Shown here one piece after another: positions 63,001 through 64,000 of a DNA stretch of 64,000 bases. The first letter of the stretch is position 1. The number at the start of each line of letters is the position of its first letter. Position numbers: made by a program. Source of the stretch: Escherichia coli (GTDB taxonomy: Bacteria; Pseudomonadota; Gammaproteobacteria; Enterobacterales; Enterobacteriaceae). The stretch lies in NCBI RefSeq assembly GCF_002854065.1, contig NZ_CP024154.1. One strand, written 5' to 3'.

Positions 63001-64000
63001 CCCGCGTCCTGTGTATCACGTGAGTGACAACACCAAAAATACAGATGTTTTCCGGATACAGTGTGCGGAACTCCGGGCTGTCTGAAACCGGCTCCAGTGC
63101 CGGGCGTGGGCGCAACAGCAGTCGTTTGACGGTGAACTCACCGTCGATCTCAGCGATAACGATGTCCCCGTGTTGTGGTTTTTCGGCCCTGTCCACTACC
63201 AGCAGATCACCATTCTGCACGCCAGCCTGGTTCATCGATTCACCGCTGGCGCGCAGAAAGAAGGTGGCTGCAGGTCTGCTGATGCAATAGCTGTTCAGAT
63301 CCAGTTCCTGCTCAGCATAATCAGTGGCAGGCGAAGGAAAACCGGCCTGGCAACGATCGGCAAACAACGGTCGCACGTAACTGTCATCGCCTGAAGGGTC
63401 AGCCGGACGGTGATAAACGGTACTCATGCTGCAGGCAGCCAGCTGTCGTCCTGCCAGATTTCTTCCAGCAGAGACAGGATACGTTCTTTATCCTTGTCGT
63501 TGCGGGCTCCTGTGACAGATACAGACGGGGCGCTGCCCTGGTCTATACGCAGCCAGATTTCCGGGTAGTGTGGTTTCAGACGTTGTTCGATTTCATTCTG
63601 TAGCGCCTGAAGTGTGCCTGATTTGAGGTTTTTTGTGCTCTGGCGGTCGAAAAGAATTTCAATGCGGATCATGTTCTCATCTCCCTTTTCTTTATGCTGT
63701 ATGTTTATACAGTATTCTAATAACTGAATCCGCACACAGTCAAATGTCATTGTTGTGACTAAAAAACGCTCAATTCTCTGAGTGTGTGGCTGTATGCCTG
63801 CTGTGGGCTGCTGTGTCCAGCTTATCCACAGCATTTTGTGCACGGTTCTGTGGACAAAATACCTGGTTACCCAGGCCGTGCCGGCACGTTAACCGGGCTG
63901 CATCCGATGCAAGTGTGTCGCTGTCGCCGGCCTCCTCACCCGGTCACGTTTCGTCGTTCCTCCTCCACGCGCTGCGGCTTCGGGGCCGCACCTGCATTCG

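Follow-up and report, generated by a model that had tools for sequence, protein, structure and literature searches.

A predicted LexA operator at the promoter of the plasmid-borne impCAB operon in Escherichia coli

In the 64,000-nucleotide stretch of Escherichia coli DNA analysed here (the window), a palindrome lies immediately ahead of the plasmid-borne operon impCAB, and we consider it very likely that this site is the SOS operator of the operon, acting by classical LexA repression. A sequence-only reading had placed impCAB under SOS control, and this is supported by the box itself, a predicted promoter, the genes of the operon and the behaviour in a lexA-defective host of the plasmid pTF2, which carries an allele one base different. 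The SOS operator of impCAB is already known, as it was described for this plasmid group and shown again for the IncI1 plasmid pTF2 in 2025, and the finding in the window is an added annotation and not new biology. The SOS wiring of impCAB has reportedly been described since the work on TP110, and both the TP110 sequence study of Lodwick and colleagues and the Shigella study of Runyen-Janecky and colleagues are said to have noted the LexA site together with a damage-related function. It would mean that these resistance plasmids, a widespread family, have an error-prone polymerase of their own, inducible by damage and wired to the SOS circuit of the host, which is of relevance to antibiotic-induced mutagenesis.

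The operator and its predicted promoter

The 16-bp palindrome claimed at 63697-63712 was read back from the window as CTGTATGTTTATACAG, identical to the earlier reading. It is a CTGT-N8-ACAG palindrome with an AT-rich spacer, set within a 20-mer (Table 1) whose plus strand, TGCTGTATGTTTATACAGTA, differs at 3 of 20 positions from the consensus TACTGTATATATATACAGTA, TACTG(TA)5CAGTA; the remaining 17 positions match and both half-sites, CTGTAT and ATACAG, are perfect. When up to 3 mismatches to the consensus were allowed, this was the single site in 64 kb, and none of 100 shuffles gave any. A symmetrised position weight matrix, trained on 19 E. coli LexA boxes (an approximate set), ranked the operator first in the window with 25.7 bits, against 16.3 for the runner-up and a window mean of -27 (sd 9.5). 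As the training boxes themselves range from 13.8 to 28.5 bits, the site stands at the strong end, with the strongest chromosomal operators. The description of the site as a near-perfect SOS operator is thus borne out by the mismatch count, the shuffles and its rank as top matrix match.

The loose pattern CTGT-N8-ACAG was found twice window-wide against 0.71 expected, and at least two occurrences arose in 17 of 100 shuffles, which is not significant alone; for lack of enrichment it was dropped as a test, and the 20-mer search and matrix scoring were used instead. Its sole other match, CTGTCCTCGTCTACAG at 41376-41391, combines a GC-rich spacer with a score of 4 bits and falls in a stretch matching the cluster of type IV pilus genes in related plasmids; we regard it as a chance occurrence and not an SOS box. 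The second best matrix score of the window (16 bits) belongs to an intragenic CTG-N10-CAG site in impB, TGCTGTGTTAATACCCAGCG at 62379-62398, which was rejected as a functional site because both half-sites are lost in a Klebsiella umuC-like homologue (L003, 3775-3834), and which is probably a by-product of the coding sequence.

Table 1. Features of the impCAB locus and its upstream region, in window coordinates
Feature	Position	Strand	Details
LexA (SOS) box, 16-bp palindromic core	63697..63712	.	CTGTATGTTTATACAG; direct sequence reading
Full 20-bp LexA operator	63695..63714	-	TACTGTATAAACATACAGCA on the minus strand; consensus search and matrix score
Predicted -10 hexamer	63714..63719	-	TAGAAT; its final T is also base 1 of the 20-mer operator
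Predicted -35 hexamer	63738..63743	-	TTGACT; 18-nt spacer to the -10
Shine-Dalgarno sequence	63680..63685	-	GGGAGA; 7 nt ahead of the impC ATG; direct sequence reading
Weak second LexA-like site	63722..63741	.	AACTGAATCCGCACACAGTC; over the -35 hexamer and spacer; about 7-8 bits
impC	63424..63672	-	82 aa, DinI-like, first gene; Pfam DinI, E-value 8e-18
impA	62990..63427	-	145 aa, UmuD-like S24 self-cleaving subunit; Peptidase_S24
impB	61719..62990	-	423 aa, UmuC-like Y-family polymerase subunit; IMS, IMS_C, IMS_HHH, DUF4113

The presumption that the box overlies the promoter agrees with a promoter predicted by consensus match. The element TTGACT-18-TAGAAT (63743-63714, minus strand) matches 10 of 12 consensus positions and is the sole sigma-70-like promoter in 63400-64000, a region in which no promoter-like site was found on the plus strand. 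The operator adjoins this predicted promoter, and since the -10 hexamer ends on the first base of the operator, transcription is expected to start inside the box, at approximately 63705-63709 by our estimate of the exact start. From the box to the ATG of impC the distance is 22 nt.

The weak second LexA-like site lies 27 bp from the main box, centre to centre. It has a counterpart in pTF2, AACTGAATCCACACACAGTC at -48 with a heterology index of 13.49 (PMC12211044), the two differing at position 11 (pTF2 versus window: A instead of G), and no counterpart was found in the Klebsiella homologues described below. The site is probably marginal and its function doubtful.

The operon and its plasmid

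The genes behind the box do form an operon for an error-prone polymerase, as had been claimed: impC, impA and impB, which follow one another in this order in one transcription unit of the TP110 type on the minus strand, running leftwards from 63672, encode respectively a DinI-like protein, an S24 UmuD-like protein and a Y-family UmuC-like protein. Stop and start codons overlap at both junctions (impC-impA at 63427-63424, impA-impB at 62990), an arrangement that, judged from the sequence, fits one translationally coupled transcript. A 139-aa ORF starting from GTG at 63424-63843 on the minus strand, and thereby spanning promoter and operator, was discarded as an artefact of ORF calling because identical plasmid records annotate impC from the ATG at 63672 (82 aa).

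ImpC matches the E. coli DinI structure 1ghh, and identical plasmid records annotate it as DinI-like or impC. Against the DinI equivalog model it scores 41 bits, far under the cut-off of 111 bits, and it is therefore a DinI paralogue and not dinI itself. ImpA exceeds the 110-bit cut-off of the NCBIfam model for the autoproteolytic subunit of polymerase V (NF007621) with 143 bits and was aligned to the E. coli UmuD and UmuD' structures (8gmt, 1umu). UmuD is cleaved at Cys24-Gly25 and has Ser60 and Lys97 as its catalytic dyad. In the alignment, Ala28-Gly29 of ImpA falls at this cleavage site and Ser64 and Lys101 at the dyad, all intact, so that both the site of RecA-facilitated self-cleavage and the Ser/Lys dyad are kept. 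ImpB reaches 797 bits with NF002955, the UmuC subfamily model of NCBIfam (cut-off 431 bits).

The operon is indeed plasmid-borne, the window belonging to a conjugative I-complex plasmid. Its last 25 kb match MOBP / MPF_I conjugative plasmids with 97% coverage and 99% identity, and these plasmids possess a type IVB pilus, a shufflon, a repZ-type replicon and a ParA-family partition gene, pilV and a repA-type replicon being annotated in one matching record. The relatives of this backbone type as IncK2/Z or IncI-gamma/K1. A repZ regulatory pseudoknot (PK-repZ; Rfam, 162.5 bits) at 53490-53639 on the plus strand marks the replicon control region of the I-complex. Carriage on an I-complex or related conjugative plasmid is what is seen for impCAB, and the locus is widely distributed: many plasmids of E. 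coli, Shigella, Salmonella and Klebsiella share the 601 bases around the box with 100% identity, over 4000 records contain this region with an identity of at least 95%, its 201-base core around the box was found in 2489 records, and ImpC, ImpA and ImpB are identical to RefSeq proteins of thousands of I-complex plasmids.

Elsewhere in the window, a sok antitoxin RNA at 9255-9411 on the plus strand (Rfam, 124.7 bits) points to a post-segregational killing locus of the hok/sok type. A locus with a dinQ-like toxin and an AgrB-like antisense RNA (Rfam, 47.7 bits) was observed at about 5.7-6.1 kb, with features at 5679-5766 (minus strand), approximately 5888-5907 and approximately 6028-6123 (plus strand). 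The ORF adjoining the AgrB-like RNA, with C-terminus ...AVIALLELIRELVD, presumably resembles the small toxins of the DinQ type. A search of the window for the published LexA box of dqlB in pTF2 gave no match within 3 mismatches. The positional counterpart of that predicted box is a CTG-N10-CAG at 5888-5907, which scores 2 bits and differs by more than 3 mismatches from the box published for pTF2; the putative LexA site of the dinQ-like locus is, by its sequence, much weaker than the one published for pTF2.

Conservation, published evidence and other explanations

In Klebsiella plasmids, operons with an ImpC 50-53% and an ImpB 70% identical to those of the window have predicted promoters of the form TTGCAA-17-AATAAT, and a strong box directly follows the -10 AATAAT, namely AACTGTACATCCATACAGTA in L002 and TACTGTATATAAAACCAGTA in L003 (21-26 bits; the boxes of L002-L005 were read by eye and then scored with the matrix). 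MAFFT alignment of the upstream region of the window with these homologues left the flanks unalignable and the boxes out of register, owing to the strong divergence of these regions and the unequal length of their leaders. That these orthologous operons, although diverged, keep the site in the same place was hence taken from the promoter scans and not from an alignment. The -10 adjoining the 20-mer, kept across diverged sequence, is the strongest in silico argument for a function of the putative operator. The upstream neighbours of the Klebsiella operons differ, being hypothetical proteins, IS26 or Tn3-family elements.

Among closer relatives, ten sequences from I-complex and F plasmids (the window, L005 and L007-L014) were aligned. 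Their intergenic region is 93-100% identical throughout, and because of this the conservation of the box among them says little. The alleles are more informative on which bases vary. At least six intact operator alleles occur, TACTGTATAAACATACAGCA (window), TACTGTATATACATACAGCA, TACTGTATATGCATACAGCA, TGCTGTATATGCATACAGCA, TGCTGTATATGTATACAGTA and TACTGTATATATATACAGCA, which score 21-29 bits with the matrix; their differences are confined to positions 2, 10-12 and 19 of the 20-mer, with CTGTAT and ATACAG invariant in all six. Position 10 of the window allele is occupied by A in place of T, and just downstream of the box there is one additional T (GCATAAAG vs GCAAAAG). One could speculate, though we think it rather unlikely, that operator polymorphism and the weak second site tune the timing or strength of induction of the mutagenic polymerase in each lineage; were this so, the A10 allele of the window with its extra T would represent one setting of such a dial.

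In p30168 (NZ_CP051351.1, L012, about 245-262) the operator has lost one TA unit by a 2-bp deletion, giving CTGTATATATACAG, CTGT-N6-ACAG, a spacer that, from the sequence, should abolish LexA binding. Both p30168 and pSS2017-2b (L005, 2461-2480) come from a lineage in which only about the first 50 codons of impC are left, and the annotated flank in pSS2017-2b has no impAB. The broken box of p30168, a single case, may reflect relaxed constraint on an orphaned operator.

Published work on pTF2 bears directly on the site. This IncI1 plasmid was searched for LexA sites, and its impCAB box, TACTGTATATACATACAGCA, one base different from the operator of the window, lies at -21 with a heterology index of 1.60 (PMC12211044, Microbiol Spectr 2025). 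By proteomics of pTF2 in a lexA-defective "SOS*" host, ImpC was 21-fold, ImpA 9-fold and ImpB 2-fold up (PMC12211044), an increase in protein amounts in a lexA strain carrying multiple mutations and not a direct test of binding. The same paper cites Lodwick et al. 1990 for the imp sequence of TP110 and Runyen-Janecky et al. 1999 for Shigella impCAB and UV survival. A search for assays of direct LexA binding to the imp operator found none among the papers covered; from the sequence we infer that LexA would physically bind the window allele.

That the palindrome arose by chance, as an inverted repeat devoid of a regulatory role in intergenic DNA rich in AT, is extremely unlikely. The lack of enrichment of the loose pattern would agree with chance, but the 20-mer match was not reproduced in any shuffle, the operator outscores all other positions of the window by more than 9 bits, operons whose flanks have diverged still have a strong box in the same position next to the -10, and the Imp proteins are up in a lexA-defective host (PMC12211044). 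A genuine LexA operator might also have as its main target the divergent plus-strand transcript of the leading region (a DUF1281 gene) instead of impCAB. The intergenic region is common to this gene, which in identical plasmids starts about 395 bp from the impC ATG, just past the end of the window, and a palindromic box has no orientation; the box, however, lies only 22 nt from the impC ATG and adjoins a -10 on the minus strand, the plus strand of 63400-64000 offers no promoter-like site, the Klebsiella homologues keep the box despite different upstream neighbours, and the proteins induced were ImpC, ImpA and ImpB (PMC12211044), all of which makes that target very improbable.

We give next to no credence to the idea that the palindrome works chiefly through a hairpin in the impC leader RNA, or as the site of a plasmid-encoded regulator, and not through LexA. 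The perfect 6-bp inverted repeat and the leader of about 35 nt would suit such a role, yet transcription is predicted to start within the palindrome, and the transcript would therefore lack the 5' arm of the hairpin. Moreover, the alleles keep the bases contacted by LexA and vary in the centre with no compensatory changes in a stem, and the Klebsiella boxes follow the LexA consensus. An SOS operator serving impCAB is the reading that we retain.

Proposed mechanism and comparison with known systems

In the undamaged cell, a dimer of the host LexA would sit on the 20-bp palindrome and, since this covers the end of the -10 and the expected transcription start, LexA bound over the -10 / +1 region would block RNA polymerase. 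Upon DNA damage, RecA filaments would promote the self-cleavage of LexA and the operator would be vacated, whereupon impC, impA and impB would be transcribed as one translationally coupled unit. By homology to UmuD, cleavage of ImpA at Ala28-Gly29, assisted by activated RecA, would follow, and the resulting ImpA', together with ImpB, may form a translesion enzyme resembling polymerase V, as UmuD and UmuC homology suggests. The DinI-like ImpC probably modulates the activity of RecA filaments, a role proposed from its homology to DinI. Derepression would be required for mutagenesis but would not suffice by itself, as ImpA would have yet to undergo cleavage aided by activated RecA.

The chromosomal umuDC operon of E. 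coli, whose LexA box is TACTGTATATAAAAACAGTA, resembles imp as a LexA-repressed operon of the polymerase V type with a high-affinity box at its promoter. The proteins correspond as well, ImpA aligning to UmuD with cleavage site and dyad kept and ImpB scoring above the UmuC subfamily cut-off. Unlike umuDC, imp is plasmid-borne and has the DinI-like gene impC as an extra first gene in the LexA-controlled unit. The umuDC homologues mucAB (of pKM101), samAB and rumAB are, like imp, carried by mobile elements and under the control of LexA. To our knowledge, these consist of two genes and have no DinI-like leader gene. Work on mucAB (McNally et al. 1990) is cited in PMC7092418, where impCAB is discussed as the three-gene case. 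The chromosomal gene dinI, which LexA regulates and whose product modulates RecA filaments, shares with impC the DinI family, and impC too stands directly behind a LexA box, but it is co-transcribed with polymerase genes and is a paralogue only.

Closest to the operon of the window is impCAB as found on TP110, on pTF2 and on the Shigella virulence plasmid, which agrees with it in its three genes and their order; for the assignment to the TP110 type, identity was established with records annotated impC or ImpC. In pTF2 the box occupies the same position and the weak second site over the -35 is shared, whereas in the window position 10 of the 20-mer is A and not T. The backbones differ too: that of the window types with IncK2/Z or IncI-gamma/K1 relatives and not with classical IncI1.
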